Virus record (IMG/VR): IMGVR_UViG_3300037095_000059
Length of the DNA stretch: 64,000 bases
Source: a virus
Direction: 5' to 3' (one strand)
The position numbers were made by a program, and so were the translations under genes. A model generated the notes under the pieces. That model was not told the origin of the DNA and did not search any database. It saw only the letters and a list, made by a program, of their open reading frames with translations. Every line of letters begins with the position of its first letter. Position 1 is the stretch's first letter. This document shows positions 1,889-63,612 of the stretch, piece after piece.

Positions 1889-2955
1889 ACATCGCCGCCA
1901 CCGACCTCAAACATGCCCTCAAGCGCCTATCCGGCGTGAAGACGGAGACCTACCAAGTCAGCGAGACCTCGGTCTCCGCACAAGACAGTGATGCCTGGGT
2001 TGTCGTCGATTGTCCATTATCCGGACTTGGTTCGGCCTTCAACATCGCGGGCAAGAAGTTATCGTCCGTGGTCAACAGGATGTCGGGCCAAATCGAGATT
2101 CTACGCGAAGACAAGAAGCTGACACTCCGTTCTGCCAAGGCGAGGATCGAGCTTGAAATCCAACCGGCAAAAACACCGGCAACCCCGAGCCAACCGGACA
2201 AGGTGCTGTCCCTGCCTGCCGCAGAATTCAAACAGGCTCTGGCCCTCGCTTTTGCCTCCGCATCTCCCGCCAAATCAGCGCCGTTCGGGGGCTGTGTCCA
2301 GCTTCAAAGCTTGGGTTTGGGTCTTGAGGAGGAAGGACCGAAGGGCTACCGGATCACCGGCACAGATGGTATCATTCTGACCACGGTCAACGCCAAAGTG
2401 GAACTTCCCTTCGAGTTCCGGATGCTCCTGAACCTGACTGCGGCATCCATTGTCCAACTAATGGATGGGGCCCAAATCGAAGTGGGTGAAACCAATACCC
2501 ACCTGAAGATAACCTCCGGCGGCACAACGGTCTACGCCTCGAAGCCAATCCAGACGTACCCAAATTATGACAGCTTGCTGTCCGCCGTTCCTCACACAAA
2601 ACTGAGCTTTCTCGCGGAAGACCTGCTGTCCGTCCTGCGCACGGTCGAGCCTATGGTTGATGAATCAGTAGACCAAGGGGCTGTCGCTTTACATTTCAAA
2701 GACGGTGTGGTACAATGTCTTAGTGGGGGAGTGGGGAGCGCGGCCCAGGACGAAACGGTTTACGAGCAGATTGACCCCGACCCGATCTTCGAACCCCGAG
2801 AAGTCCGCTTGAAGCTGAACGTCAAGTACCTGTCCAGTTTCCTTTCCAAGACTAAAGGACCGGCGGTTTTGAGCATTACGAACAAGCCCGTCTTTCTGGA
2901 GTCCGGAAACATGCTGGTACTGACCATGCCGATGCTTACCAAGGAGAAGAAATGA
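1885..2955 (+). CDS. DNA polymerase sliding clamp (DnaN/beta-like)
   Basis: 356 aa, the typical clamp length. DnaN-like strings YPNYDSLL and LNVKYLSSFL. ATGA overlap with the upstream ORF. Sits in the replication module. Confidence 0.6.
   Translation: MNIAATDLKHALKRLSGVKTETYQVSETSVSAQDSDAWVVVDCPLSGLGSAFNIAGKKLSSVVNRMSGQIEILREDKKLTLRSAKARIELEIQPAKTPATPSQPDKVLSLPAAEFKQALALAFASASPAKSAPFGGCVQLQSLGLGLEEEGPKGYRITGTDGIILTTVNAKVELPFEFRMLLNLTAASIVQLMDGAQIEVGETNTHLKITSGGTTVYASKPIQTYPNYDSLLSAVPHTKLSFLAEDLLSVLRTVEPMVDESVDQGAVALHFKDGVVQCLSGGVGSAAQDETVYEQIDPDPIFEPREVRLKLNVKYLSSFLSKTKGPAVLSITNKPVFLESGNMLVLTMPMLTKEKK
2012..2026. repeat. 15-bp motif copy, R orientation: gtccattatccggac
   Basis: Inside the clamp gene. 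Read as CPLSGL. Confidence 0.9.
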
Positions 2956-3311
2956 AGCGCATAATCCTGTTTCTCACTTTACTGTTGGCTCCTGCGCTGT
3001 ACGCGCAGACGGTTAAGCCTGCACTACCAACCACGGCGACGGACAATGCTGCTATCAAGCCAGCACTACCGACTATTACAGTACCTCCGGCAAGTTTGCT
3101 GCATTCTGACAACCTCGTCGATTTTTCTACTATTGCGTCGTTTGTTGTTCCGTTGTGCGGGTGGCAGGGTCGCGAGCGAGACGATGGCCAGTGCGAGATT
3201 ACAATAACTGCTCCACCTGATTACGAAAACTTCAAATGCACAGTCCATCAACATAAGCAGGGTGAACTGTACGTCATCACCTGCACATGGAAACCGAAGG
3301 CCAAGCCATGA
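2952..3311 (+). CDS. small secreted or lipoprotein-like protein
   Basis: N-terminal signal peptide MKRIILFLTLLLAPALYAQT. Cys-containing mature part. Confidence 0.5.
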   Translation: MKRIILFLTLLLAPALYAQTVKPALPTTATDNAAIKPALPTITVPPASLLHSDNLVDFSTIASFVVPLCGWQGRERDDGQCEITITAPPDYENFKCTVHQHKQGELYVITCTWKPKAKP

Positions 3312-4015
3312 CCGATCTTGAAATTCTTCCCCCGGTCAACTCAGAAGCGGCGCAGCAGAAACAGACAGAGATCGACGGGCTTCTCGAACAAATCTCTGCC
3401 CACGAGCTACGCCTGGCCAAACACTTCGCTCGCCTCTCCCGCTTGGTCCGGGAAGTGAAGGTCGAGCAGTATTGGATTCCCTTGGGGTATGACCGCTTCA
3501 CCTCCTACTTGGAAGTAATCCGAAAGAAGATAGGGAGGGAACGCAGCCAGATGTACGCCGTGCTCTCCGTGTCAGAAGTTTTACACCCTTTTCTGACAGA
3601 CGAGGAGCTTGAGACCGTCGGAATCACAAAGGCGCACGAACTCAAGCGCCTGGTCAAACAAGGAGGCAGGGTAGACGCGGAGGTTCCCGGGCTTTTGAGC
3701 CCCGTCCGGATAATGGACTTTGCTGCTGATCCAAAGACAACAGCTTTAATGCTCCGCGCCAAAGTCAGCGAGTTGCTACACGTCCACGAAGCTCCGAAGG
3801 GGTTGTGGTACGAGTTTGACCCTCCCGGGTTCTACGCCACCGCAGACGAACGGAAAGAGATCGCGGAGTTTTGGGAACTCGGAAAACTGATTTTGCAGGA
3901 TACGTTCGAGTCCGAGCACGAAGAAAAGAAGCAGGTGTTCTTGGCCGCAGCCCGGGAATCCACATCAACTTGGAGAGGGGAGTTGGCGAATGCCGAGCAA
4001 ACTCGTCCGCGTTGA
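3308..4015 (+). CDS. hypothetical protein
   Basis: ATG 3308 overlaps the upstream stop (ATGA). Motif copy 3704 is read in frame as VRIMD. Confidence 0.5.
   Translation: MTDLEILPPVNSEAAQQKQTEIDGLLEQISAHELRLAKHFARLSRLVREVKVEQYWIPLGYDRFTSYLEVIRKKIGRERSQMYAVLSVSEVLHPFLTDEELETVGITKAHELKRLVKQGGRVDAEVPGLLSPVRIMDFAADPKTTALMLRAKVSELLHVHEAPKGLWYEFDPPGFYATADERKEIAEFWELGKLILQDTFESEHEEKKQVFLAAARESTSTWRGELANAEQTRPR
3704..3718. repeat. 15-bp motif copy, F orientation: gtccggataatggac
   Basis: Inside ORF 3308..4015. Read as VRIMD. Confidence 0.9.
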
Positions 4016-4400
4016 ACTCGGGGATGAAGGACGCCCAATCCGAATTTTCAGGGACAAGTCCTGGCTGACGTGCGAGAACCCCGTCCAGTTAATGGACAGA
4101 GCTAGGGCTGTTCTCTCGATTAGAGAGCAGGTGTTTTGGCGGGCGAGAGACTTCAAGAATATGCGCCCCGTATTTTGTATCGAAGCCTACGCCTGTGAAC
4201 GCTGCGGACGACGAATAACCTGGGAGACCTTTGAAATGAACGAAATCCGGCCCAAGGGGGCCGGGGGAGGTAAGACCGGCGGAGAAGTTTCCCTCGAAAA
4301 TTGTGAGGCATTGTGCCACCAATGCCACCAGGGTAGTCCAGATTCCGCTCACGGGAATCGGCGGTGGCAAACAGCAAAACTCGATCCCGAAGGATCATAA
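3990..4400 (+). CDS. HNH endonuclease
   Basis: CERCG...NEIRPKG...CEALCHQCHQG gives a CxxC...N...CxxCH HNH zinc signature. Motif copy 4083 is read as VQLMD. Confidence 0.75.
   Translation: MPSKLVRVELGDEGRPIRIFRDKSWLTCENPVQLMDRARAVLSIREQVFWRARDFKNMRPVFCIEAYACERCGRRITWETFEMNEIRPKGAGGGKTGGEVSLENCEALCHQCHQGSPDSAHGNRRWQTAKLDPEGS
4083..4097. repeat. 15-bp motif copy, F: gtccagttaatggac
   Basis: Inside the HNH gene. Read as VQLMD. Confidence 0.9.
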
Positions 4401-4919
4401 ATGGACGCTCTCAAATACCAACCCGTAATCAAAGATGTCATGGCCAAACTGAAGGTGCGTAAAAACCAGCAGGAGGATATGACACAAGAATGCTACTTGG
4501 CTCTGCTTGCCGGAGAAGATAAGCTGAAAGCAGCAGACGACGACATGGGGTACGCAGCTACAATCTGCCGGAACAGAATTCGACAGTGTTGGTCGAAGGA
4601 GCGATTCGGGATTCCAAATTTCAACCAGATAAAAGACGACCCGCCCCAGATCAGATTCGATTCCTTGTCTGAGCCTAAGATACAGAGGAAGGCGGCCAAG
4701 GTTGCTTCTCTTTCTCCGGCCCCGGACGCTGGGCTTTTATTCATGGACCTGCGGGCGGCTGTTTCCAAGCTCTCGGAGGAGGAACAAGACGTGGTTCAAA
4801 GGATTCTTGGGGGCGAGTCCCGGGAGCAGATAGCAGCCGCTTTGGGGCTTAGTCGGAGAGCAGTGGGCAGGCGGTACAAAGCCGCTGTCGAGAAACTGAA
4901 GAAAGTGCTGGGGGTTTGA
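4401..4919 (+). CDS. RNA polymerase sigma factor (sigma-70/ECF-like, regions 2 and 4)
   Basis: Region-2-like QECYLALLAGE. C-terminal HTH SREQIAAALGLSRRAVGRRYKAAVEKLKK. Confidence 0.7.
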   Translation: MDALKYQPVIKDVMAKLKVRKNQQEDMTQECYLALLAGEDKLKAADDDMGYAATICRNRIRQCWSKERFGIPNFNQIKDDPPQIRFDSLSEPKIQRKAAKVASLSPAPDAGLLFMDLRAAVSKLSEEEQDVVQRILGGESREQIAAALGLSRRAVGRRYKAAVEKLKKVLGV

Positions 4920-4920
4920 A

Positions 4921-5319
4921 ATGGGCGTATCGAAAACAGTAACGGTTATTTGCGATTATTCCAAATGTTTGGGCAACAAAACCGGCCCGGCTGTGGTACA
5001 ATGGAATGAGACGGATGTCTCGTCTGGAAAAGCCGAACTTCCGGAAGAAGCAAAGTACCTGGTCCTCATCACGCACAACAACATTCAAAAAGCCTTTTGC
5101 TGTCAACTACACGCGGCGGAATACTTCCTTCCCCCCGGGTACGAAGCGAAGCAGAAACAAGTGATTGAGTTTCCAACCCCGAAGGAAGAGCCGGGACCTT
5201 GCCCGCCGATGCGTGCTTGGGTGGATGAACCGCTTCGGTCAGAAGAAAGTCCGGATAATGGACAATCCGGTTTTGTCTACGGCGAGAAGAACAACGGACC
5301 GGGAGGAATCAACGAATGA
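4921..5319 (+). CDS. hypothetical protein
   Basis: 132-aa ORF tightly packed between neighbours. Motif copy 5249 is read as SPDNGQ. Confidence 0.45.
   Translation: MGVSKTVTVICDYSKCLGNKTGPAVVQWNETDVSSGKAELPEEAKYLVLITHNNIQKAFCCQLHAAEYFLPPGYEAKQKQVIEFPTPKEEPGPCPPMRAWVDEPLRSEESPDNGQSGFVYGEKNNGPGGINE
5249..5263. repeat. 15-bp motif copy, F: gtccggataatggac
   Basis: Inside ORF 4921..5319. Read as SPDNGQ. Confidence 0.9.
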
Positions 5320-5956: not shown

Positions 5957-6459
5957 TGGGAATATCAAAGCACGGCGGAAACCCGAACTATAAACCGCCA
6001 ACGAAGAAAGCCAAGACGCAAGCGCAACTCGACCGCGCCACAGACCTTCGGCTGCAAAAAGCGTACAACATCACCTTAGCCGACTATGAAAAAATGGAGA
6101 AGACCCACGGGGGCAAGTGTTGGATAAGCGGAAGACCTCCAGGTTCAAGGCGGTTGCACGTCGATCACGACCATAGCTGGAAGAAGGTAAAAATCACCAC
6201 CAGCAAACTTTCCGAAACGGGCAATTGGGTGGCAACAGCGAATTACCTTCACACGGACTACACGGGGTACGGAGCCAAGAAGTCTTTGGCTGTTCGAGAA
6301 GTCAAACGTAAACTGCTTCGTGCTTCGGTTCGGGGGCTGCTCACATACTCCATCAATGCGGGGTTGCAGAAATTTTCAGACGACCCAAAACTTCTTAGAG
6401 TGGCGGCGGACTACCTTGAGAAACACCAAGGTCCATTAACTGGACAGGAGACAACATGA
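5956..6459 (+). CDS. recombination endonuclease VII-like resolvase
   Basis: GGKCWISG...LHVDHDH...VRGLLTYSINAGL follows the Endo VII pattern. ATG 5956 overlaps the upstream TGA. Motif copy 6431 is read as GPLTGQ. Confidence 0.65.
   Translation: MGISKHGGNPNYKPPTKKAKTQAQLDRATDLRLQKAYNITLADYEKMEKTHGGKCWISGRPPGSRRLHVDHDHSWKKVKITTSKLSETGNWVATANYLHTDYTGYGAKKSLAVREVKRKLLRASVRGLLTYSINAGLQKFSDDPKLLRVAADYLEKHQGPLTGQETT
6431..6445. repeat. 15-bp motif copy, R: gtccattaactggac
   Basis: At the end of the Endo VII gene. Read as GPLTGQ. Confidence 0.9.
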
Positions 6460-7689: not shown

Positions 7690-7863
7690 ATGAAACTGCC
7701 TGACTCAGTGGTTGAAGGTTTGAGAAAGATAGCGGGCCGCCCCCTGTTGGACTACACCTTCGCCTTCGGGGAAGACCGCGACATCTACGAAGCGGGAGTC
7801 CTGGACGGGGGAGCAAGCTTGGCGCAGTATGTTCTGGACGGTCTTGAAAAGGAGTCCGAATAA
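7690..7863 (+). CDS. hypothetical protein (57 aa)
   Basis: ATG 7690 preceded by AAGGAG. Its TAA stop lies inside motif copy 7854. Confidence 0.4.
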   Translation: MKLPDSVVEGLRKIAGRPLLDYTFAFGEDRDIYEAGVLDGGASLAQYVLDGLEKESE

Positions 7864-7868
7864 TGGAC
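7854..7868. repeat. 15-bp motif copy, F: gtccgaataatggac
   Basis: Gene junction. Its TAA is the stop of 7690..7863 and its ATG is the start of 7863..8048. Confidence 0.9.
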
Positions 7869-8048: not shown

Positions 8049-9519
8049 GACAACCCCCGTACCCGAATACCTGAAGAAGTCAGTCCACCAGATTCATTCC
8101 TTGCATCCCGAAACATCGGCGCGGACGATTGCCAAGCAAATAGGTCTTCATCACAAGACCGTTTCGAGAATACTCAAACAGCAGGAAGTGGACGAGATTG
8201 TGCAGGGGATTCAAGCGGACGATCAGGAGCCCGTCCAGTTACTGGACGAGACAGCGAATGAAGTTCCCAACGGACAGTGGGTGGAGGGGAAGTCCTACGT
8301 CTACAACGGAACAAGTGACAGCTATGTTACAGTCCTCAAGTGCCGCCCGAAACCCCTGGTAATGACGGGAACCAAATTCCGAGCCATGAAAAAGGCGTAC
8401 AGCAACTGGGACGGAAACCCGGCGACGATCAACGAAATATGCCGTAGATTTGCTGTTCCCCGGGATCAGTTCATCGAACTAAAAGCCATTCATGGTTGGA
8501 CCCACGAGCAGGAGCCATATACCCGGGAAGAGGTGATGTCTCGTGAAGTTGACGACCTCGCCGACGACGCTTTCCAGCAACGCAGGCAGTCTATCTGGGA
8601 AGGGTTTGAGAAGAAAAAGTGGCACCAGACCAAGGAGGACGCTCAGAAGTGGAACAACTTGGAGCAGAACTTCATGCTCCCCTTGCAAGATCAACTGTCC
8701 ACTTTGATTCCTTCTTATGAGCCTCCTCGCTTGAACTTAAAGACTTCTCGTAATCCTTTTGCGGTTGTGACCAGCGCGGGAGAACTTCACTACGGGGGGA
8801 GCGGCTGGGTTCTGGAAACTGGGGAAGAGTTTAACCGAGCAGATGCGGAAGAGCGTCTGATTTATGCCCGAACCAGGATGCTAGAAGAAGTGGCGGACAA
8901 GGGGAGGCCCGAGAAGTTCTTCTATTGTGTGGGCCATGACTTCTTAACAGTTGACACCGATTTCGGAACCACGACCAAGGGAACTCCGCAGGAAATGGAC
9001 GGAACCGCCGCTCAGATTCTGGCGGAAGGCTTCGATCTGGCTGTTCGAGACATTGACGCTCTCCGAAGCGTATCTCGAATTCAGATTCTGTCAATTCCCG
9101 GGAACCACGACAGACTTTTGACTGTGGCCTTGCTCAAATTCCTCCAAGCCTGGTACAGAAACCAGGACGACGTGGAAATCGAATTCAGCGCCAAGTCTCG
9201 GTCGTATGCTGCCTATGGAGACACGCTGCTTGGGTTTGCACACGGGGATGGGGCCTTAAAACCCAAGGACTACATGGCGACAATGGCCAAGGAGGCTCCT
9301 GGGTTGTGGGCAAACACGATCTATCGGGCCTTCTTTACAGGGCACCTGCATTCGGAAGTTGTCCGCGAGTTGGTGGGGGGCACCCACTATCAGATGCCGT
9401 CTCTCAGAGGACGCGACCGATTCCACGAACGTCAAGCCTACCTGTCTGAAGCAGCTTTGGCGAGTTATGTAGTAGACCGAGCAAAAGGGATCACTAGCAC
9501 GATCTACACGCGAGTCTGA
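8041..9519 (+). CDS. HTH domain plus calcineurin-like metallophosphoesterase (Mre11/SbcD-like nuclease candidate)
   Basis: N-terminal HTH ARTIAKQIGLHHKTVSRILKQ. Phosphoesterase motifs IPGNHD, GFAHGDG, FTGHLH. Confidence 0.6.
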   Translation: MPKTTPVPEYLKKSVHQIHSLHPETSARTIAKQIGLHHKTVSRILKQQEVDEIVQGIQADDQEPVQLLDETANEVPNGQWVEGKSYVYNGTSDSYVTVLKCRPKPLVMTGTKFRAMKKAYSNWDGNPATINEICRRFAVPRDQFIELKAIHGWTHEQEPYTREEVMSREVDDLADDAFQQRRQSIWEGFEKKKWHQTKEDAQKWNNLEQNFMLPLQDQLSTLIPSYEPPRLNLKTSRNPFAVVTSAGELHYGGSGWVLETGEEFNRADAEERLIYARTRMLEEVADKGRPEKFFYCVGHDFLTVDTDFGTTTKGTPQEMDGTAAQILAEGFDLAVRDIDALRSVSRIQILSIPGNHDRLLTVALLKFLQAWYRNQDDVEIEFSAKSRSYAAYGDTLLGFAHGDGALKPKDYMATMAKEAPGLWANTIYRAFFTGHLHSEVVRELVGGTHYQMPSLRGRDRFHERQAYLSEAALASYVVDRAKGITSTIYTRV

Positions 9520-9521
9520 CA

Positions 9522-10178
9522 ATGATCGAGTCCATAAAAACTAAGATTTGTGCGGGTTGTCGATCTTTACTGGAGGCCGACAACTTTCACAAAAACCAAA
9601 ACTCTCCAGACGGGCTTTGCCGACTGTGTAAGGGCTGCACGAGAGAGTATCAAAAAAGATGGAGAGCAGACAACAAGGAGTCTATAAAAACTCGTTTTCA
9701 AAACAGACCGAAGGCTCGGAAAGAGAGGGACAACGCCCGAACAAGGGCCTGGACGGCGGAGCATCCCGAAGAAAAGAAAGCAATGGATGCCCAATATCGA
9801 AGTCTCCACAAGGACGAGAAGAAGAAACGACACGACCTCCGGATGGGAAATGATGTTCAGTACAAGTTAGCGTGCGACTTGCGTTGGAGAATGAATCGGG
9901 CTATTCGTCTCTGTTCTAAGTCTGGATCGGCTGTCAAGGATTTGGGGTGCTCAATTGAAGAACTCAAGAAGCACCTCGAATCAAAATTTCAACCGGGAAT
10001 GACTTGGGACAATTGGGGGTTTGGGGAAGGTTGTTGGCATATCGACCATGTTCGTCCTCTAATATCCTTCAACTTGGAAGATCGAACGCAGTTTCTAATC
10101 GCTTGTAACTTTCGTAATCTTCAACCCTTATGGGCGAAAGAAAACATTTCAAAGGGCGGAAAATTTACGCGAGTTTAG
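9522..10178 (+). CDS. HNH homing-endonuclease-like protein (paralog of 34501..35256)
   Basis: N-terminal CxxC...CxxC finger and a K/R-rich middle. C-terminal WHIDHVRP...NLQPLWAKENISKG. Confidence 0.7.
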   Translation: MIESIKTKICAGCRSLLEADNFHKNQNSPDGLCRLCKGCTREYQKRWRADNKESIKTRFQNRPKARKERDNARTRAWTAEHPEEKKAMDAQYRSLHKDEKKKRHDLRMGNDVQYKLACDLRWRMNRAIRLCSKSGSAVKDLGCSIEELKKHLESKFQPGMTWDNWGFGEGCWHIDHVRPLISFNLEDRTQFLIACNFRNLQPLWAKENISKGGKFTRV

Positions 10179-10192
10179 TCCGGATAATGGAC
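10178..10192. repeat. 15-bp motif copy, F: gtccggataatggac
   Basis: Begins at the last base of the HNH gene's TAG stop. Intergenic. Confidence 0.9.
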
Positions 10193-11161: not shown

Positions 11162-11176
11162 GTCCATTAACCGGAC
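11162..11176. repeat. 15-bp motif copy, R: gtccattaaccggac
   Basis: Intergenic, 6 nt upstream of the DUF1643 start. Confidence 0.9.
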
Positions 11177-11709: not shown

Positions 11710-12036
11710 ATGGAGCACACTCGGGAATTTATAGCCGGATACCGGCAAGCGGTTGGAGAGGCGACAGAGCCTTTTCCACTGCTTGAAGTTCCGGGGAAGA
11801 CCGTCAACAATTTGATGGAAGACCGGCGAAAGAAACTGCTCACCAAGAAGGTAACCCGGTGGCTGATCGTAATACCGGCTACCGAACAAGGGTGCGTGTC
11901 TGACCCGGCCAGGCAGTATGAATACTACTCGTCGGATCGACTTCTTTACGACTCCAAAGAATCCGCAGAGGCCGCTTCAGTCCGTTATGAAGAAACCTTT
12001 GGCATATTCCCCGTCGAAATCGAAGTACCACTTTAG
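11710..12036 (+). CDS. hypothetical protein
   Basis: ATG 11710 sits 5 nt after GAGGAG (alternative ATG at 11698). Last plus-strand gene; its stop abuts motif copy 12036. Confidence 0.45.
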   Translation: MEHTREFIAGYRQAVGEATEPFPLLEVPGKTVNNLMEDRRKKLLTKKVTRWLIVIPATEQGCVSDPARQYEYYSSDRLLYDSKESAEAASVRYEETFGIFPVEIEVPL

Positions 12037-12050
12037 TCCGGGTAATGGAC
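12036..12050. repeat. 15-bp motif copy, F: gtccgggtaatggac
   Basis: Begins at the last base of the TAG stop of the last plus-strand gene. Confidence 0.9.
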
Positions 12051-12190: not shown

Positions 12191-12832
12191 TTATTCTTCT
12201 AGTCTGAGCTTCTTCATTTCTTTCGGGTCCTTGTCTGGCATGTTTCCCTCCCCCTTGTATGAGGGAGTATACACCCTGTCCGGTGTTCCGGTATTGGTCC
12301 AGGCGTGTGTTTGTCCCGCGTATTTATCTGCCGCATCTCCGCTAGAAAAGACTCCAAGATGTTCTTTGGTTTTGACGTAGTGTTTCTTGGCCTCCTCGTA
12401 CAAAGCGTCGTTAGCCTCCTTGTCTTTTTCGTCCGGTTTCTTTCCGGAGGAGGTCAAGAACTTACCGTCGGCTATCTGCGGGATCAGGGCGTACCTCGGG
12501 GCGTGGTCGTAATCTTCTTCCGGCCACAGTTCTCCCTTTTCATCGAGGGGGATGGTTGCTGAATAAATACTGCTATAGGAGCCATCCTCGTTCCGAATTC
12601 CAGGACGGTGGTTGACATCAATATTTCCGGACTGAACCATGCCGGGAACAGGCGTTCCTTGAAGCGGCCCCACGTCGTAAACAGGAGGGGGAACCGGCTG
12701 CGGGTTTGGTTTGGTTGTTCCGGGGGTCGGGACTCCGGAGTCCATCACATACCCAGCCGGAAGAGCCGCGTCTAATACATACCCCGGGGGAGGGGTTGGT
12801 TGTCCGGATAATGGACTTGCTGGGCTACCCAT
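12191..12832 (-). CDS. hypothetical protein (Pro-rich N-terminus)
   Basis: 213-aa ORF, the last minus-strand gene. Its start overlaps the stop of the giant ORF. Motif copy 12802 is read as SPLSGQ. Confidence 0.5.
   Translation of the reverse strand: MGSPASPLSGQPTPPPGYVLDAALPAGYVMDSGVPTPGTTKPNPQPVPPPVYDVGPLQGTPVPGMVQSGNIDVNHRPGIRNEDGSYSSIYSATIPLDEKGELWPEEDYDHAPRYALIPQIADGKFLTSSGKKPDEKDKEANDALYEEAKKHYVKTKEHLGVFSSGDAADKYAGQTHAWTNTGTPDRVYTPSYKGEGNMPDKDPKEMKKLRLEE
12802..12816. repeat. 15-bp motif copy, F: gtccggataatggac
   Basis: Inside ORF 12191..12832. Read as SPLSGQ. Confidence 0.9.
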
Positions 12833-40593: not shown

Positions 40594-40608
40594 GTCCATT
40601 AACTGGAC
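40594..40608. repeat. 15-bp motif copy, R: gtccattaactggac
   Basis: In the 336-nt intergenic region, next to the GC hairpin. Confidence 0.9.
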
Positions 40609-40923: not shown

Positions 40924-41048
40924 TACTTCTCTGCCTTCTTGTCCACTTTTCGGGCAACGAGTCGTCCATCAGGAAGTCGTAAAGCAATACCCACGTGTTT
41001 GGGAAGGGGCCGGAAATCGGGAAGAAATAGAACGTAGTGCTCGTCCAT
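40923..41048 (-). CDS. small hypothetical protein (41 aa)
   Basis: ATGGAC start at a TAATGGAC junction. Weak call. Confidence 0.25.
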   Translation of the reverse strand: MDEHYVLFLPDFRPLPKHVGIALRLPDGRLVARKVDKKAEK

Positions 41049-41140
41049 TAGTTGGGCTCCTTTATGTTGGCCCCAAAGGCCAGGTAGGTCAGAAACCCGA
41101 AGCAAGCCGCCAACCCGAGTATGGTTAGGAAGAGGAGCAT
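41048..41140 (-). CDS. small membrane protein (30 aa)
   Basis: MLLFLTILGLAACFGFLTYLAFG. Weak call. Confidence 0.25.
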   Translation of the reverse strand: MLLFLTILGLAACFGFLTYLAFGANIKEPN

Positions 41141-42581: not shown

Positions 42582-42836
42582 CTCTGTTACCTCGTCCAGG
42601 TAATGGACGCGGGCAAGTCGTTTCTGTTCCGCTTGCCTCATACGGTTCGTTTCCCGTATGCCCAGACTGTTGCATACCCTTTCGGGTCTTCTTCGCTCAG
42701 TCGTTCACGGTCTCTTTCGAGTTCCGCCTCGTTGGCATTTCAGCGTTCGAGTCAATCAGAAGAAGTTTTACCTGCGCCGATGTTTTAACGCAGTGTGTTG
42801 GTGTAGCGAACGTTGTAGCTCACCCACGGAGACTAC
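42582..42836 (-). ncRNA. group-I-intron-like ribozyme core B (ORF-less); boundaries approximate
   Basis: Starts right at the capsid exon-3 stop. Elements: CUUCUUCUG/CGAAGAAG P3, CUC-GAAA-GAG, ACCC-GAAA-GGGU P8, CAUACGG..CCGUAUG P9, motif hairpin 42594, terminal GUAACAGAG. Confidence 0.55.
42594..42608. repeat. 15-bp motif copy, F: gtccaggtaatggac
   Basis: Hairpin near the 3' end of group-I-like core B. Confidence 0.9.
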
Positions 42837-43021: not shown

Positions 43022-43246
43022 CTCTCTGTTAACTGCTGTGTTATCAGCAAGATACGTCATTTCTGCGTATCTCTCATACTTCATTTCGTATGAGAACGGA
43101 CTATCGCATCGTCCATTACCTGGACGCCCCATCGTTTAGTCTCTCACGGTCCCTTTCGGGTTCCGCCTTGTTGGCTTCTCAGCTTCCAAGTCGATTAGAC
43201 GGGGTTCTCATTCGAGGGTTTCACCTCGATGACGCCTACATTATTG
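43022..43246 (-). mobile_element. group I intron 2 in the capsid gene (225 nt, ORF-less)
   Basis: P1 ACGU|C pairs with GGCGU (U.G at the splice site). P2 CAUCGAGG/CCUCGAAUG. P3 CCCCGUC/GAUGGGG. GCU-GAGA-AGC, CCC-GAAA-GGG, GAGAGACUAAA. P8 is motif copy 43111. P9 CUCAUAC/GUAUGAG. Ends in G. Confidence 0.7.
43111..43125. repeat. 15-bp motif copy, R: gtccattacctggac
   Basis: Forms the P8 hairpin of capsid intron 2. Confidence 0.9.
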
Positions 43247-46177: not shown

Positions 46178-46192
46178 GTCCATTATCCGGAC
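46178..46192. repeat. 15-bp motif copy, R: gtccattatccggac
   Basis: Intergenic, between 46196..46429 and the scaffold candidate. Confidence 0.9.
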
Positions 46193-47405: not shown

Positions 47406-47420
47406 GTCCGGGAAATGGAC
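47406..47420. repeat. 15-bp motif copy, F: gtccgggaaatggac
   Basis: Intergenic, 3 nt after the portal stop. Confidence 0.85.
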
Positions 47421-49546: not shown

Positions 49547-49561
49547 GTCCATTAACCGGAC
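49547..49561. repeat. 15-bp motif copy, R: gtccattaaccggac
   Basis: Intergenic, upstream of the portal. Overlaps the stop of 49561..49830. Confidence 0.9.
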
Positions 49562-49832: not shown

Positions 49833-50225
49833 TTAACCTCTTGATGTAGGCGCGAAGCCCAGGGTTGAGTTGTTCGTTAATTGTGGTGTCGGGGCAGACG
49901 CGCCCCACATGCTTATGGGCTTAGCCCCTTGTTGTTTAGGGAGAAGCCCGGGAGGAAAGTTCGGAGGAAGCGCCGGTCCATTATTCGGACCAGGGGGCGG
50001 GGTCGTCCACCCGTTGGGGCGGTCTACTTTGAGATGCGGCTGAAACGTAATTCCGAAGATTTCATACGTTCCGTTGTTTTCCACGTCCGAGGCGTTGCGC
50101 GGCATTTTGCTTATGAGCCGCTGTCCGATAGGTATGTTCCACCGGCTAGGAGTAGACAGGTGGTCCGCGTCGTGTGTGTAGAGGACCGTTCCGTCATCAT
50201 CTTGGATTTCTACGTGGAGTTTCAT
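49833..50225 (-). CDS. hypothetical protein
   Basis: 130-aa ORF with an ATGA-type junction to the terminase. Motif copy 49976 is read as PGPNNGP. Confidence 0.4.
   Translation of the reverse strand: MKLHVEIQDDDGTVLYTHDADHLSTPSRWNIPIGQRLISKMPRNASDVENNGTYEIFGITFQPHLKVDRPNGWTTPPPGPNNGPALPPNFPPGLLPKQQGAKPISMWGASAPTPQLTNNSTLGFAPTSRG
49976..49990. repeat. 15-bp motif copy, R: gtccattattcggac
   Basis: Inside ORF 49833..50225. Read as GPNNGP. Confidence 0.85.
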
Positions 50226-52265: not shown

Positions 52266-52280
52266 GTCCGGGTAATGGAC
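52266..52280. repeat. 15-bp motif copy, F: gtccgggtaatggac
   Basis: Intergenic, 4 nt upstream of the terminase ATG. Confidence 0.9.
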
Positions 52281-54158: not shown

Positions 54159-54173
54159 GTCCGGGTAATGGAC
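54159..54173. repeat. 15-bp motif copy, F: gtccgggtaatggac
   Basis: Intergenic, upstream of 53766..54140. Confidence 0.9.
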
Positions 54174-54471: not shown

Positions 54472-56058
54472 AACTACGCCTGTTTCCGCTGCCGTGAATG
54501 TGATCGTGAACCCCGTCTTGCTGATGGCGCTGATGTAGGGAATGGCCGTCGCATTATCCGGTGTCACCACACAGAATGCCGCGTTCGTCCAGCCGGAGTT
54601 GGCAAAGGTGATATTCACACTTGTAGCTGCGCTCAGGCCAGTGATCTCTCCGCCCATGTTGCTGCTGTAAGCGGCTACGCTTCCTGCTGAGGCTGTTGGG
54701 GCTGTGGCTGTGAGCGATATTGTGCCCCCACCTTTGATCCTAAAAGCCTCTCCCAGTGTGCCATTCAATACAGTTCGGAAAACTAAATCCGCACTCAGAG
54801 TTGCTTGACGGTAATCAGTAGTTGTGGCAGAGACTTCTCCTTGTACGGTAGAATTCTGTGTGGAAGTTGGAAGCATGAAACTAAACCCAGCCTTACTTCC
54901 GTTTGCGTTTGCGTCCGCTCCTGCATATGCTTCAACTGGAATCATCAACGAGCTGTTGAAGCCGCCCGTGGTAGACTGAAAGGTTATGCCATTACCATTA
55001 CTCTGTATAAGAATGCCAGAGCTACCATTTATCTCAAAACGATTATCGCCGCCCCCAGCTATACTTATACTTCCACTATGGGTACTATTATCGGTAACTG
55101 AGAATGCTGGTATACCCATATTCAGTGGTACAGTGGAGGCAAAAGTTGTTGCGTTGACATACCCCGTTGTATTCGCGGTAGGATACGCCCCACCTGCCGG
55201 GTAGCTTGCCGCTGCTGTGTAGGTAGTAGCCGCCGCGTTCTGCTGGAAGCTCGTTCCGGTCGCTACTGAGTAGTAAGCGAACGATCCGGTATTCTTCATC
55301 CAAATGTAGCCCGTCGTGCAGCCACTCGGCAGCGTATAGCTCCAGACGATGTAGCTTGAGCCGCCGGTTGTAGTGACGTTGGCGGATGCAACGCCGAGCG
55401 TTGTGTTTGCTCCGCTAGAATCAATGCACGTTACCGCAGCTTCGTTCGTGGTGCTTGCGCCTACAGACTGGCCGGAGTTTGTCGCTACGCCTGTTGGCGC
55501 TGCTGCGTTGGCAACTGTGCTCAGCGTCAGGCCGGTCATGGACTGATTCTCTGTAAACGTGTTGGCAATCCCCGTTCCTGCCGCGCCTAGACTTGTCAAT
55601 GCCGCCGCAGCCGTAGTTGCACCTGTGCCGCCCGACGCCGGAAGCAATGGCGATCCAAGCGTCTCACTGCCAGCCGCGATGGTACCTGGGAAAGTGGCCG
55701 TACCACTAGCCCCGATGGCCCCTGTCTGCGTTGCGCCAAGGTTGACTTGAGCGCCGATACTCGCTGGCGTCGCCGAGATCACGCCTGCTGTATTGAGTAT
55801 CGTAGTCCCATCCGGCATCACGCCGCCCAGTACACTGCTGGTTGCCGTGGGCAGTGAGTAACTTGTTGCTGCCCAGGTGCCGTTATTGCAAGTATACACA
55901 ACCCCTGTAGAGATCACAACTTCAATAGGGGGAGAAGCGGGGCACGCTCCCGAGGGGGCGACTGGGACATAGATAACTTGGTTGTTCACCGGCAGTTGTG
56001 CCGAGGCTGTCCAGGTAATGGACAACATGAGCGCGGCGAGAAAAAGGAGTTTCTTCAT
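54448..56058 (-). CDS. fibre-like protein with an N-terminal signal peptide (536 aa)
   Basis: MKKLLFLAALMLSITWTASAQ. Shares 84-, 53- and 68-bp identical cassettes and the ...FYHCDGN C-terminus with 30989..33973. Confidence 0.55.
   Translation of the reverse strand: MKKLLFLAALMLSITWTASAQLPVNNQVIYVPVAPSGACPASPPIEVVISTGVVYTCNNGTWAATSYSLPTATSSVLGGVMPDGTTILNTAGVISATPASIGAQVNLGATQTGAIGASGTATFPGTIAAGSETLGSPLLPASGGTGATTAAAALTSLGAAGTGIANTFTENQSMTGLTLSTVANAAAPTGVATNSGQSVGASTTNEAAVTCIDSSGANTTLGVASANVTTTGGSSYIVWSYTLPSGCTTGYIWMKNTGSFAYYSVATGTSFQQNAAATTYTAAASYPAGGAYPTANTTGYVNATTFASTVPLNMGIPAFSVTDNSTHSGSISIAGGGDNRFEINGSSGILIQSNGNGITFQSTTGGFNSSLMIPVEAYAGADANANGSKAGFSFMLPTSTQNSTVQGEVSATTTDYRQATLSADLVFRTVLNGTLGEAFRIKGGGTISLTATAPTASAGSVAAYSSNMGGEITGLSAATSVNITFANSGWTNAAFCVVTPDNATAIPYISAISKTGFTITFTAAETGVVFYHCDGN
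55622..55674. repeat. 53-bp exact repeat (copy 2)
   Basis: Identical to 31767..31819. Confidence 0.9.
55685..55768. repeat. 84-bp exact repeat (copy 2)
   Basis: Identical to 33402..33485. Confidence 0.9.
56009..56023. repeat. 15-bp motif copy, F: gtccaggtaatggac
   Basis: Inside the signal-peptide coding region of 54448..56058. Read as LSITWT. Confidence 0.9.
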
Positions 56059-57903: not shown

Positions 57904-58554
57904 TTAGTCCATTACCCGGACTAAAACTTTTTGTTTCTTCTTTGGTCTCCTCGAAGGAGCTTTCTTTCTGCAATCAATACATTGACCTTGCAGCCCGTTC
58001 CAACGAGAAGCATTTCTTTCGAAACTAGAAAGGGAGATAAAACTTTTGTGTGTGCTACACCAGGAGGTTCCTTCTGGACCCACTTTTCTAATGTTTCTGG
58101 GGGCTCTTTTTGGCTTCTCCGGAAGAGGAGGAAGCTCGGCACCTACCATTTGGAAAAGCTCTTGCCAGACTTCTCTGTCGTACCATTTCTTTCGGGCGGA
58201 GAAAATATCCCAGAGTTCGGATAGGGTCAGCGTCGGCTCGTCTTTTTCCAAACGAGAAATGGTTCTTATTCTGTGGCAATTGGCACAAACTAATTCGCAC
58301 TTTTTAAGCTCAGAAACCAGAGCCGCAGGAGTGCAGCGCCTGACTATTGAGGCTATATTCATAACTTTGTCCCCGTCGATGTGGTCAAAATCCATAGCAC
58401 AAGAGGGGAATTTTCCCCCACAATCCAGGCAGGGTCTGTTTTTCAAAAGGACCAAAAGGGCTTCAAAAACCCTTTTATACTGTTTATTCTTTTGTAAATA
58501 GTCCTCTTTGTTTTCCTCGTAGTGGGCGCGATGATAGGCGGGGTCAGAGGGCAT
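57904..58554 (-). CDS. HNH endonuclease
   Basis: CLDCGG...DFDHIDGDK...CANCHRIRT. ATG 58554 chosen because the longer ORF runs through two tRNA genes. Ends VRVMD inside motif copy 57907. Confidence 0.7.
   Translation of the reverse strand: MPSDPAYHRAHYEENKEDYLQKNKQYKRVFEALLVLLKNRPCLDCGGKFPSCAMDFDHIDGDKVMNIASIVRRCTPAALVSELKKCELVCANCHRIRTISRLEKDEPTLTLSELWDIFSARKKWYDREVWQELFQMVGAELPPLPEKPKRAPRNIRKVGPEGTSWCSTHKSFISLSSFERNASRWNGLQGQCIDCRKKAPSRRPKKKQKVLVRVMD
57907..57921. repeat. 15-bp motif copy, R: gtccattacccggac
   Basis: Last five codons (VRVMD) of the HNH gene 57904..58554. Confidence 0.9.
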
Positions 58555-59352: not shown

Positions 59353-59718
59353 AAAACTTTTGTCCATTAACCGGACAATATCCTTCTTCAACTGTGCAAC
59401 CTTCGCGGGCGGCATGTACAACTCGCCCTTCTTGACCAAGGCTATTCCTCCCTTTTTCACCGTGCCGCCTTTGTGAAAAGTAGCGGGAGACGCTTTGCTA
59501 AAATTGGGAGTCGGCAGGCTCGGGGTGTAGCTGGGGCCCGGGGCTTGCCTTGTATTCGCTTGTAGATCGTCTGTTGTTGCTGCGCGAGCAGCGGCGTTCT
59601 TGGCTTCAGCGGCCTGCATAGCAGAGCCCACGGCCCCGACGGCGGACCCTACTTTCTGCTTAGTGGTCTGCGGTGTTTTGGAGTCCGGTTTGTCGGTGCC
59701 TACCATTGCGTTTGCCAC
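59344..59718 (-). CDS. hypothetical protein embedded in the tRNA array
   Basis: 124-aa ORF with an A/T/K-rich N-terminus. C-terminus VRLMDKSFGR is read through motif copy 59362. The stop lies inside the adjacent tRNA-like gene. Confidence 0.4.
   Translation of the reverse strand: MANAMVGTDKPDSKTPQTTKQKVGSAVGAVGSAMQAAEAKNAAARAATTDDLQANTRQAPGPSYTPSLPTPNFSKASPATFHKGGTVKKGGIALVKKGELYMPPAKVAQLKKDIVRLMDKSFGR
59362..59376. repeat. 15-bp motif copy, R: gtccattaaccggac
   Basis: Near the C-terminus of 59344..59718 (VRLMD), 10 nt from a tRNA-like gene. Confidence 0.9.
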
Positions 59719-61313: not shown

Positions 61314-61328
61314 GTCCATTACCTGGAC
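61314..61328. repeat. 15-bp motif copy, R: gtccattacctggac
   Basis: Spacer in the tRNA array, between the His and Thr blocks. Confidence 0.9.
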
Positions 61329-61708: not shown

Positions 61709-61723
61709 GTCCATTATCTGGAC
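61709..61723. repeat. 15-bp motif copy, R: gtccattatctggac
   Basis: 3 nt upstream (5') of tRNA-Thr(CGU). Confidence 0.9.
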
Positions 61724-62831: not shown

Positions 62832-62992
62832 GTAAGATTGTACTCCAGATTATAAGAGATGAATTTTATCACATCTCCCGCTGCCGGGGTATTAAGTCCA
62901 TTGTCTGGATGAAGTTCGCAGTATTTGTCCCACGCAGTCTTGTGCGGACATGGTCTGCTGTAATAATTAGAAATACATTCTTCCAGATTCAT
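62822..62992 (-). CDS. small Cys-containing protein (56 aa) embedded in the tRNA array
   Basis: GAGGAAG RBS. MNLEECISNYYSRPCPHKTAWDKYCELHPDNGL... The degenerate motif 62896 is read as HPDNGL. The stop lies inside tRNA-Asp. Confidence 0.35.
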   Translation of the reverse strand: MNLEECISNYYSRPCPHKTAWDKYCELHPDNGLNTPAAGDVIKFISYNLEYNLTRA

Positions 62993-63081: not shown

Positions 63082-63102
63082 ATAAACATTATACCACAAA
63101 AC

Positions 63103-63193
63103 TGGTGCAAGCAGAGGGATTCGAACCCCCAATGTCATCAAAGATAATCCAGATTTACAGTCTGGCGCACCCAACCGTATGTGCCTTACTTGC
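63103..63193 (-). tRNA. tRNA-Tyr(GUA), class II
   Basis: CCAGA-CUGUAAA-UCUGG. D arm GCAC/GUGC. Long variable arm. CCA encoded. Confidence 0.8.
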
Positions 63194-63194
63194 G

Positions 63195-63279
63195 TGGAGG
63201 AGAGCAGCCGAATCGAACGGCCATCCTTGCGGAGCCCCGGTTTTCAAGACCGGCTGTATCACCATCAACAGTGCTCTCC
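63195..63279 (-). tRNA. tRNA-Ser(UGA)
   Basis: CCGGU-CUUGAAA-ACCGG. Long variable arm. CCA encoded. Confidence 0.8.
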
Positions 63280-63525
63280 AAAACTTACCGCAATCCCTGC
63301 GGCCTCACTTTCTGAGCGGTTCAGAGGAAGTGTGTTCAGTAACCCCGAATCCAGGGTGAGCCTTACAGACCGCTAGCGGTACAACGTCAAAACTTAACTC
63401 CCCGACTTCTACGCGACACCTTGCTGAGCTTGTCAGGGCCAGCCGGGCTCGGGGAACCGGGTCATATTCCAACCCTTTGACAAGGGAATAAGGAACAGGG
63501 GACGACCGGCGGCACACGTCAAACA
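63280..63525 (-). ncRNA. unassigned structured spacer S3 (~245 nt)
   Basis: GC-rich helices (CCGG..CCGG, GAGCCCGGCU, ACCGCUAGCGGU palindrome, CUCAC../..GUGAG). No ORF and no cloverleaf. Confidence 0.35.
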
Positions 63526-63612
63526 TGGCGGAAGATGAAGTATCGAAACCTTGTCCATTATCTGGACAGCACCGGGTTCGAGCCGGTTTGGGCACCTTGC
63601 CCGCCATCTTCC
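63526..63612 (-). tRNA. tRNA-Ser(CGA) whose variable arm is a copy of the 15-bp motif
   Basis: ACCGG-CUCGAAC-CCGGU. Variable arm GUCC-AGAUAAU-GGAC (motif copy 63553). Weak T stem. CCA encoded. Confidence 0.65.
63553..63567. repeat. 15-bp motif copy, R: gtccattatctggac
   Basis: Forms the variable arm of tRNA-Ser(CGA). Confidence 0.9.

Follow-up and report, generated by a model that had tools for sequence, protein, structure and literature searches.

A 15-bp motif, GTCC-NNNN-AATGGAC (GTCCNNNNAATGGAC), occurs 37 times in a 64,000-nucleotide stretch of DNA from a soil phage (IMG/VR record IMGVR_UViG_3300037095_000059; this whole 64-kb stretch is hereafter the window) and is repeated in many contigs from a clade of related uncultured phages. 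We put the chances at about even that the motif is a double-stranded DNA recognition site for a protein of this phage clade. The predicted binding of such a trans-acting reader is suggested by four properties of the sequences: conservation of the copies independent of strand and coding status, absence of covariation between the arms, an 11-bp spacing of the half-sites, and a concerted change of the word between subclades.

A pattern scan of the window reproduced exactly what an earlier note on this DNA had reported, namely 37 copies from position 2012 to position 63567, 17 on the + strand and 20 on the - strand, all at the same coordinates, with T at motif position 8 in 35 copies and A in two (23823 and 47406). 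Every copy has purines at positions 5 and 6, and the density is ~1 copy per 1.7 kb. Dinucleotide-preserving shuffles of the window (n = 100) contained 0.02 copies on average and never more than one. Of the 37 copies, 18 lie wholly within the 56 long open reading frames (ORFs), compared with 0.32 on average and at most 3 in synonymous-codon shuffles (n = 300), in which codons were permuted within each ORF such that every protein was unchanged. These are the two kinds of null that the earlier note had proposed, and the motif stands far above both, ruling out chance, composition or codon usage as its source. GTCC-N7-GGAC is also the sole enriched dyad of the 4+N+4 form in the window (41 copies, with every other dyad at 8 or fewer), and eight further copies of the motif differ from it by one mismatch. 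A search of the window for a second repeated word found none; GAACTTCA and CGGGCGGC are scattered coding words. Our own ORF calls, which are crude, place about 15 window copies within real ORFs and leave about 22 for junctions, non-coding stretches and RNA sequence, in line with the roughly even division between spacers and genes described previously. Five copies had been said to touch an ORF of 3043 codons; four are indeed inside it, and the fifth lies 9 nt beyond its stop codon.

To examine the distribution of the motif, we searched IMG/VR with one exact variant, which returned many contigs with several matches each, and we fetched related DNA from IMG/VR as stretches of up to 22 kb via the portal, primase-helicase and recombinase (these and other loci are designated by L numbers). 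The motif is present in multiple copies in dozens of contigs whose portal proteins are 47-98% identical to that of the window, at 0.2-1.5 copies per kb. Nearly all fetched relatives down to ~65% portal identity carry it at 0.2-0.8 copies per kb; below that level its occurrence is patchy, and it is missing from several relatives at 47-57%, in which we sought a substitute repeated word and found none. The highest count in the fetched stretches is 21 copies of the degenerate word in 14.4 kb. Tunturiibacter phage Tunturi 3, the nearest isolate, has zero copies. When the exact word was compared with 185,579 species genomes (one per bacterial or archaeal species), matches were scattered among unrelated taxa. 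Among the bacterial loci listed (at least 120), 119 hold one copy each and one unrelated locus (L157) holds two, and none of them encodes a relative of this phage. As far as can be seen among the matches listed, therefore, the motif is a word of a phage clade and not of host chromosomes, a distinction that the earlier note had raised.

We aligned each copy, together with 150 nt of flanking sequence, against all related loci, obtaining orthologue counts that are not phylogenetically independent. At 60-90% identity, the motif was retained in 65% of comparisons for sense copies in ORFs, 55% for antisense copies in ORFs and 59% for copies at junctions, whereas 11 positions at 75% identity are expected to survive neutrally in ~4%. 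Where the motif is lost, it has nearly always changed by point substitution or given way to another sequence of similar length: gaps account for 3 of ~290 comparisons and substitutions for 94 absences. A birth can be seen at position 1545 of L041, within coding sequence: four relatives align there without gaps but with unrelated sequence, and substitutions alone built the motif. The only large change that leaves the motif intact is inversion of its core. In 14 distinct orthologous pairs the 7-bp centre is exactly inverted while the arms and flanks are unchanged (for example, window copy 42594 compared with L054, and 63553 compared with L050); these flips are perhaps visible merely because they are neutral, which would mean that orientation matters little. 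The contrast with the neutral expectation is large; the alignments show that the copies are under purifying selection, regardless of strand or coding status, and that they arise and decay in place by point substitution rather than by insertion.

A logo built from 196 non-identical copies reads Y(-2) H(-1) GTCC R R N T AATGGAC D(+15) R(+16), giving a site of ~19 bp with no conservation beyond 2 nt on either side. Stop codons account for part of the flank bias: in many copies the G of an upstream TAG is also G1 of the motif. The earlier note had stated that many copies extend to AGTCC...GGACT; complementary bases at -1/+15 are present in just 12 of the 37, and across 194 copies there are 58 complementary pairs at these positions compared with 62.8 expected, with no covariation at -2/+16 either. 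We therefore reject extended hairpin arms. The remaining stem is 4-5 bp (-3.4 to -4.6 kcal/mol), and extension at chance level weakens the suggestion that the motif acts as a cruciform. Considered as an intrinsic terminator, it lacks a T-run in its downstream logo, and considered as a boxB-like structured RNA, it lacks covariation and its antisense copies are conserved equally.

Of the 196 copies, 40% lie outside called ORFs, and those at gene junctions use a small number of registers. The upstream TAG stop may end on G1, the motif's own TAA may serve as the upstream stop, its ATG may be the downstream start with a GGAG overlapping G1 as ribosome-binding site, or a Shine-Dalgarno sequence may follow the motif immediately, the motif then lying, in either orientation, 4-20 nt ahead of the start; in many junction copies the Shine-Dalgarno sequence begins 0-5 nt past the motif. 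Copies inside ORFs use every stop-free frame and encode turn-like peptides (P-D/G/N-N-G, P-L-S/T-G). Copies in the non-coding gap of the major capsid gene stand where relatives have ordinary hairpins (CACCC-CGAA-GGGTG, GTTC-GAAA-GAAC), and the copy in a tRNA arm likewise stands where a relative has an ordinary hairpin; the motif is thus fitted wherever a short dyad is tolerated. Orientation is evenly divided deep in ORFs (59 sense, 58 antisense), and sense copies predominate at co-directional junctions (35 to 14, or 71%), where copies are enriched, and in portal-centred loci (106 to 36). Over all 227 copies with an unambiguous local gene direction, 145 (64%) are sense and 82 (~36%) antisense, a moderate bias that we attribute to the junction copies, in which TAATG can double as stop plus start. 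A runs test along the window gave no departure from random order of orientations, and base use at the variable positions is equal in both orientations.

The copies are also evenly spaced. The coefficient of variation (CV) of the gaps in the window is 0.50, compared with 0.96 for random placement and 1.03 for a junction-aware model that assigns 21 copies to gene junctions picked at random and leaves the others free, and no gap is shorter than 379 bp or longer than 3590 bp; for all these departures P is below 5e-5 to 3e-4. In the dense early region of a relative (21 copies in 14.4 kb) the CV is 0.42. Density tracks gene density, with 1.3-1.5 copies per kb among small genes and ~0.5 per kb among large virion genes, and long ORFs are not spared (the 9.1-kb ORF of 3043 aa has its four copies).

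Subclades differ in the form of the word. Three contigs with portals 70% identical to that of the window have no canonical copy in their portal-centred loci and carry instead ~0.5 copies per kb of TTCCAGATAATGGAA (TTCC...GGAA), the main form throughout the TTCC subclade (L228-L230, L013, L015, L006, L270-L272 and L276-L277); a few canonical GTCC...GGAC copies persist in L013, L015, L006 and L277. The two forms can occupy orthologous positions, as at L230 16960 (canonical in window copy 42594 and in L054) and L230 15391 (canonical in L233). Among 26 distinct TTCC-subclade copies the outer bases are T..A in 15, G..A in 4, T..C in 2, G..C in 2 and others in 3, and complementary outer pairs number 17 compared with 14.9 expected under independence. 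The half-sites have thus moved from G to T independently, which points to a changed preference of a protein contacting both halves and not to a base-paired stem. Other subclades prefer AGAA or ACAA cores, such as GTCCAGAAAATGGAC (L237, L239, L260, L268, L286) and GTCCACAAAATGGAC (L226). In L264 (IMGVR_UViG_3300050016_000047; portal 49% identical) the canonical motif is absent and there are five GTCC-N6-CGGA sites compared with 0.3 expected, several of the form GTCCG-N5-CGGAC (for example, GTCCGCAAAACGGAC, present twice); these may represent an older or divergent dialect.

These data are consistent with a sequence-specific reader protein, encoded by the phage clade and co-evolving with the motif. 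Such a protein would contact the two GTCC half-sites, the centres of which are 11 bp (one helical turn) apart, as a dimer or as a two-domain protein, and would also recognize the asymmetric AT-rich centre, making the motif a pseudo-dyad. Selection keeps about one site per gene or per 1-2 kb, evenly spaced and in either orientation, at places where it costs least. The motif can coincide with a TAG or TAA stop, an ATG start, a ribosome-binding site (GGAG) or a -35 element (TTGTCC), or it can form a hairpin tip or encode a turn-like peptide. Among the roles that the earlier note had offered, an operator for a phage DNA-binding protein is the one favoured by orientation-independence, conservation at the DNA level, lack of hairpin covariation and the concerted shift between subclades.

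Strong host-type promoters (TTGACA-like, TGnTATAAT, A-rich upstream) are numerous in the clade, including in the late region and the tRNA array. We compared motif positions with those of TGnTAnAAT sites (208 non-identical ones, from related loci totalling 1.7 Mb), where ~0.4 copies are expected per 10-nt bin. Sense copies start 6-8 nt past the -10 hexamer, at about the transcript start, in five cases, and antisense copies start at -30 to -26, covering the -35 region, in six, with TTGTCC a possible weak -35; these promoter-linked copies are a small minority and some may be orthologous. Very strong host-type promoters, with a TTGACA-like -35 and TGTGGTATAATG, are found in the window at 42282 (-), 63096 (-), 1729 (+) and 19941 (-). 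Promoters of this kind recur in the clade, including in the capsid-gene gap just 5' of a GIY-YIG ORF and in the tRNA array, and the 'aaaataattcgaa' upstream of the strong promoters is conserved among relatives.

What a bound reader would do is a matter on which we can offer only tentative proposals. The enrichment at junctions, the tracking of gene density and the placement over the +1 or -35 of some promoters lead us to suggest, as a best guess that is well short of probable, that the motif is a genome-wide operator modulating transcription by host RNA polymerase. Bound protein would occlude the host-type promoters that carry the motif at +1 or -35 and elsewhere would act as a roadblock or organizer, in an orientation-tolerant counterpart of mycobacteriophage stoperators. 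A role in marking or organizing the genome would explain equally well why the copies are evenly spaced, only weakly biased in orientation and present deep in long ORFs, and most of the remaining probability goes to it. One such role, which we consider unlikely, is that the evenly spaced copies form a 'self' label by which a co-evolving reader distinguishes the phage chromosome from host DNA. This viral counterpart of uptake sequences or of matS/NBS-type chromosome marks might serve in protection from phage or host nucleases, loading of packaging or condensing factors, or recruitment to a replication compartment, and its dialects (GTCC...GGAC, TTCC...GGAA, AGAA/ACAA cores) could isolate subclades during co-infection.

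Several points weigh against recognition by a DNA-binding protein, and especially against an operator. No helix-turn-helix repressor or regulator was found with Pfam and PHROGs among 70 proteins of the window and the L021 early region, the gene calls are greedy longest ORFs, and the orthologue counts, as noted above, are not independent. Stoperators are strictly co-oriented with transcription whereas sense copies here are just 64%, most copies are far from recognizable promoters, and a role in lysogenic silencing is doubtful because the nearest cultured relative is lytic (PMC11924767). The strongly conserved asymmetric TAAT centre is unusual for a simple homodimer site, and the boxB-like fold of the sense strand (5-bp stem, G-N-U-A-A pentaloop) arguably keeps an RNA-level function alive for the sense copies. 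Presence and absence do not single out a reader: the motif-free L285 still has homologues of p242, the HNH protein, the sigma-like protein, p132 and p121. ORF 3287-4015 has no sequence match in PDB.

Alternatively, a phage nuclease, nickase or topoisomerase-like enzyme could cut or nick at the motif for replication, recombination or relief of torsion. Candidates for such an enzyme are the HNH protein (3990-4400), the EndoVII-like proteins and the tyrosine recombinase of relatives. Every relative with this module has a small HNH gene next to its sigma gene, and the window has two EndoVII-like ORFs. A full-length tyrosine recombinase (Phage_integrase domain) is encoded in the motif-dense early region of L021 (6365-7465), adjoining a family A DNA polymerase, with a 48%-identical homologue in the TTCC subclade (L270-L272, 10001-11104). 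Inverted arms around a 7-bp asymmetric core are the layout of a recombinase core site, copies are never closer than 235-379 bp (which would avoid double-strand breaks from nicks on opposite strands), and the clean core inversions could follow nick-induced template switching. Known phage nick sites (T5, phiKMV, tf), however, are on one strand and number from a handful to ~15, whereas the motif is on both strands and exceeds 1 per kb in the densest regions of relatives. L285 has the HNH homologue and its neighbours yet no motif or substitute, EndoVII_a is absent from the motif-bearing L286, and the recombinase is found in five contigs of two subclades only, which speaks against it as a clade-wide partner, although the window does not extend to that region. 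The arms, at 4 bp with degenerate flanks, are also far shorter than the ~9-13 bp of recombinase arms, and enrichment of sites would not be needed unless cutting were useful. We regard an enzyme target as unlikely on balance. The related suggestion of a recombination hotspot or linker between modules is weakened by breakpoints that are only weakly enriched at the motif: 10 ends of high-scoring segment pairs lie near motifs compared with 5.1 expected (P = 0.06). A rather improbable alternative is an RNA hairpin between cistrons, in which the sense GUCCR/UGGAC forms a 5-bp stem with a G-N-U-A-A loop and serves as a processing or stability element or is bound by a phage RNA-binding protein, either antiterminator-like (as N with boxB) or a RegA-like translational repressor. 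Predicted folding energies are -4.6 to -9.7 kcal/mol (z = -3.7 to -5), the freely variable loop base would be the N of a GNRA-like fold, and sense copies prevail overall (145:82), in portal loci (106:36) and at junctions (35:14), typically overlapping the start codon or immediately ahead of the Shine-Dalgarno sequence. In addition, transcripts from the five host-type promoters would begin with the motif's first base, and the motif stands in for ordinary hairpins in the capsid-gene gap and the tRNA variable arm. These features must be set against the ~36% of copies that are antisense and conserved as well as sense copies, which also weakens the RNA processing or hairpin signal raised in the earlier note, and against the 1:1 orientation deep in ORFs and the free flipping of orthologous sites. 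The G5-U11 wobble becomes an A-C mismatch in antisense RNA, yet antisense copies show no preference for A5 (P = 0.26), stem bases never covary, many outer pairs in the TTCC subclade are non-complementary, and a U-tract for termination is absent.

Molecular drive could also multiply the motif without benefit to the phage, if biased mismatch repair or gene conversion between co-infecting genomes pushed near-matches toward it. Biased repair is thought to explain the accumulation of DNA uptake sequences in Neisseria and Haemophilus, and origin in place by substitution, also inside coding sequence, the use of both orientations and all tolerated frames, the density of ~1 per kb with even spacing, the concerted shift of variants between subclades and a genome rich in recombination and repair nucleases would all fit. 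A specificity of 15-19 bp is long for a repair bias, though, and drive alone predicts neither an upper limit to the gaps nor the absence of close pairs, so we find this explanation quite improbable; as it still needs a sequence-specific protein, it differs from recognition by a phage-encoded reader only in who benefits. That the motif is a promoter element of the phage sigma factor (ORF 4401-4919), as the earlier note had also considered, is very unlikely. The motif shares TAATG (GTAATG in some copies) with phiEco32 and 7-11 promoters, the window has both a sigma-like ORF and an SU10-type portal, and junction copies are enriched and sense-biased. Nevertheless, antisense copies make up 82 of the 227 that can be oriented, many copies are deep inside ORFs, the Shine-Dalgarno sequence abuts the motif such that a transcript starting 6-8 nt downstream would lose it, and nothing is conserved at -35 distance from the motif. 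The sigma gene is moreover the most divergent of its module (37% compared with 81-83% for the primase) while the motif is unchanged in the same comparison, and there are 37 or more sites here compared with 6-8 in phiEco32 and 7-11. Least credible is a miniature mobile palindromic element (of the repetitive extragenic palindrome, miniature inverted-repeat transposable element or Rickettsia palindromic element type) inserting in tolerant places. Copies in spacers, in frame in ORFs and in RNA genes, a length of 15 bp (five codons), the two orientations, and a 10-12 nt indel at the motif that separates promoter orthologues of L058 and L030 would suit such an element. Empty sites are nearly unseen (the 3 in ~290 comparisons given above), absences being by substitution or equal-length sequence, which largely refutes it; there is no conserved flank, target duplication or associated transposase, and the bacterial loci listed hold single copies but for one with two. 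We also compared the motif by eye with a DnaA box, an IHF site and an extracytoplasmic-function sigma promoter, and rejected all three, as key positions are variable or absent.

The window is DNA of a podophage related to Tunturi 3, a 97.6-kb lytic podovirus of Acidobacteriota (PMC11924767); the portal, terminase, capsid and gp19 proteins are 27-43% identical, and a search for deposited phages close at the DNA level found none. The hosts of the clade are probably Acidobacteriota. Genes run rightward to ~12.2 kb and then leftward to ~58.7 kb, followed by a leftward tRNA array. The rightward block encodes a primase-helicase, a processivity-factor-like protein, a small HNH protein, a sigma-70-family protein, two EndoVII-like nucleases and an Mre11-like exonuclease, and the leftward block encodes the 3043-aa protein, virion proteins, an SU10-type portal, the large terminase and an interrupted major capsid protein. 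The sigma-like ORF (4401-4919) has regions 2 and 4. Its product is 28-37% identical between genomes in which the primase-helicase is 81-83% and neighbouring genes 50-65% identical (compared with L274, L275 and others), so it appears to evolve unusually fast or to be exchanged. ORF 10798-11118 has a weak match, below the Pfam cut-off, to the N-terminal domain of dATP/dGTP diphosphohydrolase (MazZ-like), and ORF 11182-11688 has a strong DUF1643 match; the two may hint at nucleotide-pool or DNA-modification chemistry. In L021, the early ORFs 10-668, 2852-3625 and 5944-6377 contain long runs of short tandem peptide repeats (SVWASVWDSV, GDAWVYGNARVS) with all three frames open.

The 3043-aa ORF (12825-21956, - strand) matches DUF7178 at aa 1212-1399 alone, and a PDB sequence search with it found no relatives. 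It presumably encodes a giant virion or ejection protein, and on these results we rejected an N4-like virion RNA polymerase acting at hairpin promoters. The major capsid gene (- strand, 41048-44978) appears to be split in three (~44978-44817, 43916-43236 and probably 41344-41048), and its interruptions carry a LAGLIDADG ORF (43836-44735) and a GIY-YIG/NUMOD3 ORF (41390-42196). Two motif copies, 42594 and 43111, had been assigned to an intron P8 element and to the tail of a core B; both do lie in a non-coding gap of the capsid gene, and the labels themselves find no backing in Rfam, which gave no group I intron hit in these gaps. The tRNA array contains at least 26 tRNAs (24 called by ARAGORN and more by Rfam). 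The copy said to occupy a tRNA variable arm, 63553, is indeed in that of tRNA-Ser(CGA) (~63520-63612, - strand). Both programs missed this tRNA, probably because of an odd T arm and a variable arm that consists of the 15-bp motif, and the orthologue in L059 (1749-1836) is called normally. Beside the L059 orthologue of copy 61709, a hairpin of 48 nt with a perfect stem (CATATATGGGTC...GACCCATATATG) is inserted, in this one relative only. The copies in the window are listed in Table 1.

Table 1. Copies of the motif and one-mismatch copies in the window; 'kept' and 'flipped' refer to orthologous positions in relatives.
Feature	Position	Strand	Context
Motif copy GTCCGGATAATGGAC	2012..2026	-	In ORF 1885-2955 (processivity-factor-like); antisense to gene, frame 1 (..CPLSGL..)
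Motif copy	3704..3718	+	In ORF 3287-4015; sense, frame 0 (VRIMD)
Motif copy	4083..4097	+	5' end of small HNH ORF 3990-4400; sense; 68 nt past previous stop; its in-frame ATG (4092) may be the true start of this ORF
Motif copy	5249..5263	+	In ORF 4921-5319; sense, frame 1 (SPDNGQ)
Motif copy	6431..6445	-	Antisense; 14 nt ahead of stop of EndoVII-like ORF 5656-6459
Motif copy	7854..7868	+	Gap between ORFs 7245-7628 and 8041-9519; sense; AAGGAG precedes; GGAG, 8 nt and the motif's ATG look like a translation start
Junction copy	10178..10192	+	TAG stop of ORF 9522-10178 ends on G1; AGGAGG and ATG 10203 directly after
Intergenic copy	11162..11176	-	Antisense; 5 nt ahead of ATG 11182 (DUF1643 gene)
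Junction copy	12036..12050	+	Stop of ORF 11698-12036 ends on G1; end of + strand gene block
Motif copy	12802..12816	+	9 nt beyond stop of 3043-aa ORF, in first codons of ORF 12191-12832; antisense
Motif copy	15551..15565	-	In 3043-aa ORF; sense, frame 1 (SPDNGH); kept in L009 despite flank indels
Motif copy	17390..17404	-	In 3043-aa ORF; sense, frame 1 (GPDNGL); kept in L009, L037
Motif copy	18479..18493	+	In 3043-aa ORF; antisense, frame 1 (SPLSGL)
Motif copy	21785..21799	-	In 3043-aa ORF; sense, frame 1 (SPGNGQ)
Motif copy (A at position 8)	23823..23837	+	In ORF 23789-24184; antisense
Motif copy	24867..24881	+	In ORF 24239-24952; antisense
Junction copy	26128..26142	-	TAG of ORF 26142-26645 ends on G1; motif's ATG starts ORF 25765-26133; junction wholly within motif
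Intergenic copy	29718..29732	-	Sense; 16 nt ahead of start of 1018-aa ORF (Tunturi 3 gp19 homologue)
Intergenic copy	30904..30918	+	Antisense; 9 nt ahead of ATG 30894
Motif copy	33913..33927	+	Near 5' end of ORF 30989-33973; antisense; kept in L023
Junction copy	37258..37272	-	Motif's ATG starts ORF 36613-37263; upstream stop 3 nt ahead of motif
Intergenic copy	38532..38546	-	Sense; 13 nt ahead of ATG 38518; kept in L046
Motif copy	40594..40608	-	Non-coding stretch 40502-41047; sense; kept in L046, L018
Motif copy	42594..42608	+	Capsid-gene gap (putative intron 2); antisense; flipped in L054, L044, L218; TTCC...GGAA in L230
Motif copy	43111..43125	-	Same capsid-gene gap as 42594; sense; relatives have ordinary short hairpin (CACCC-CGAA-GGGTG and similar)
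Intergenic copy	46178..46192	-	Sense; 41 nt ahead of ATG 46136; kept in L044, L046, L018
Motif copy (A at position 8)	47406..47420	+	3 nt past portal stop; antisense; L230 copy also just past portal gene
Junction copy	49547..49561	-	Upstream TAG ends on G1; 38 nt ahead of portal ATG 49508; sense
Motif copy	49976..49990	-	In ORF 49833-50225; sense, frame 1 (GPNNGP); L049 has GCCC...GGGC there
Motif copy	52266..52280	+	4 nt ahead of ATG of terminase-large-subunit ORF (50225-52261); antisense; flipped in L088
Motif copy	54159..54173	+	18 nt ahead of ATG 54140; antisense; L060, L022 retain CCAGGTAATGGAC, first two bases missing in alignment
Motif copy	56009..56023	+	In ORF 54448-56058; antisense; kept in L056, L010
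Motif copy	57907..57921	-	Between ORF 56960-57814 and tRNA array; sense; kept in L060, L022
Motif copy	59362..59376	-	tRNA-array spacer; same direction as tRNAs
Motif copy	61314..61328	-	tRNA-array spacer; kept in L056
Motif copy	61709..61723	-	3 nt 5' of tRNA-Thr(cgt); kept in L059
Motif copy	63553..63567	-	Variable arm of uncalled tRNA-Ser(CGA) ~63520-63612; flipped in L050; ordinary hairpin in L059
One-mismatch copy GTCCAGTTACTGGAC	8233..8247	.	Perfect 7+1+7 palindrome
One-mismatch copy GTCCAACTAATGGAT	2452..2466	+	
One-mismatch copy GTCCGGGAACTGGAC	19413..19427	-	In 3043-aa ORF
One-mismatch copy GTCCGGTTACTGGAC	35975..35989	+	
One-mismatch copy GCCCGAGAAATGGAC	38241..38255	-	
One-mismatch copy GCCCAACTAATGGAC	41043..41057	-	
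One-mismatch copy ATCCAGACAATGGAC	62896..62910	-	

The motif is neither a new category of element nor one that has already been described. To our knowledge, short words distributed genome-wide in phages have been described only a few times, and both a reader and a role are known only for the stoperators of Cluster A. The large uncultured clade studied here, of probable Acidobacteriota phages from environmental metagenomes, provides natural replication in the form of hundreds of sites, and with it selection on both strands, births in place in genes, in a tRNA and in the capsid-gene gap, flips of orientation, and dialects of subclades. Because of these dialects, the reader should be findable by covariation in complete genomes, and the 19-bp site is a ready probe for pull-down. 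Should a function in genome marking or in global transcriptional control of a lytic phage prove true, this would amount to a regulatory principle new to such phages, and the motif would be a useful signature for assigning metagenomic contigs to the clade.

Several known systems resemble the motif in part, the nearest analogues being mycobacteriophage stoperators and the Cluster O repeats. The uptake sequences of Haemophilus (USS, uptake signal sequences) and Neisseria (DUS, DNA uptake sequences) occur about once per kb, in both orientations and mostly in genes, where frame and peptide tolerate them; point mutation, not transposition, creates them, and a specific protein reads their lineage dialects. 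They are, however, words of bacterial chromosomes that serve DNA uptake, a step that a phage does not have, so 'self-marking' by a phage is hypothetical. Cluster A stoperators, the sites of the L5 gp71 repressor, are asymmetric words of 13-14 bp with 20-36 copies per ~50 kb, mostly in short intergenic gaps and some in genes; word and repressor co-evolve between subclusters, and some stoperators overlap promoters as operators. The density of ~1 per 1.7 kb, the tens of copies and the intergenic enrichment are alike in the two systems. Stoperators differ in that they face one way relative to transcription, compared with 64% sense here, have no dyad arms, and act in lysogenic silencing through an identified repressor. 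The boxB element of lambdoid nut sites is a 15-nt hairpin with a 5-bp stem and a GNRA-like pentaloop, and the sense strand of the motif resembles it in length, stem and purine-rich GNRA-like pentaloop. Whereas boxB occurs twice per genome, in the sense orientation only and with boxA nearby, the motif occurs dozens of times, and the third of its copies that are antisense are conserved just as well.

The promoters read by phiEco32 gp36 (tAATGTAtA) and by phage 7-11 gp47 (GTAAtg-N16-aCTA; PMC8948821) share the TAATG core with the motif, and these phages are of a related type, with an SU10/phiEco32-like portal and their own sigma factor. They have 6-8 such promoters per genome, all co-oriented with the genes they drive and with starts mapped 6-9 bp from the element, compared with the 37 or more copies here, which are of mixed orientation, often in ORFs and often abutting a Shine-Dalgarno sequence. 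Of the features described so far, the Cluster O mycobacteriophage repeat, 5'-TGTTCGGNNNCCGAACA, comes closest; it is of the same kind, not the same sequence. This 17-bp dyad is present in more than 30 copies per genome, ~40% in short intergenic gaps and the others near gene starts or in genes, and is absent from the hosts examined and from other mycobacteriophages; its function is unknown, and a dimeric DNA-binding protein has been suggested (Cresawn et al. 2015, PMC4351075). Both repeats have copies throughout the genome, inverted arms around a short asymmetric A/T-rich centre, indifference to orientation, positions held among relatives, loss by single base changes, and restriction to one clade. 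They differ in sequence and lineage, one belonging to siphoviruses of Actinobacteria and the other to the podovirus clade described here, and in that the arms are 7 bp in Cluster O and 4 bp here, where the centre is 7 bp and highly conserved. Even spacing, clean flips of the core, placement in a tRNA arm and in a capsid-gene gap, and a concerted shift of the word between subclades, all seen here, have not been reported for the Cluster O repeat.

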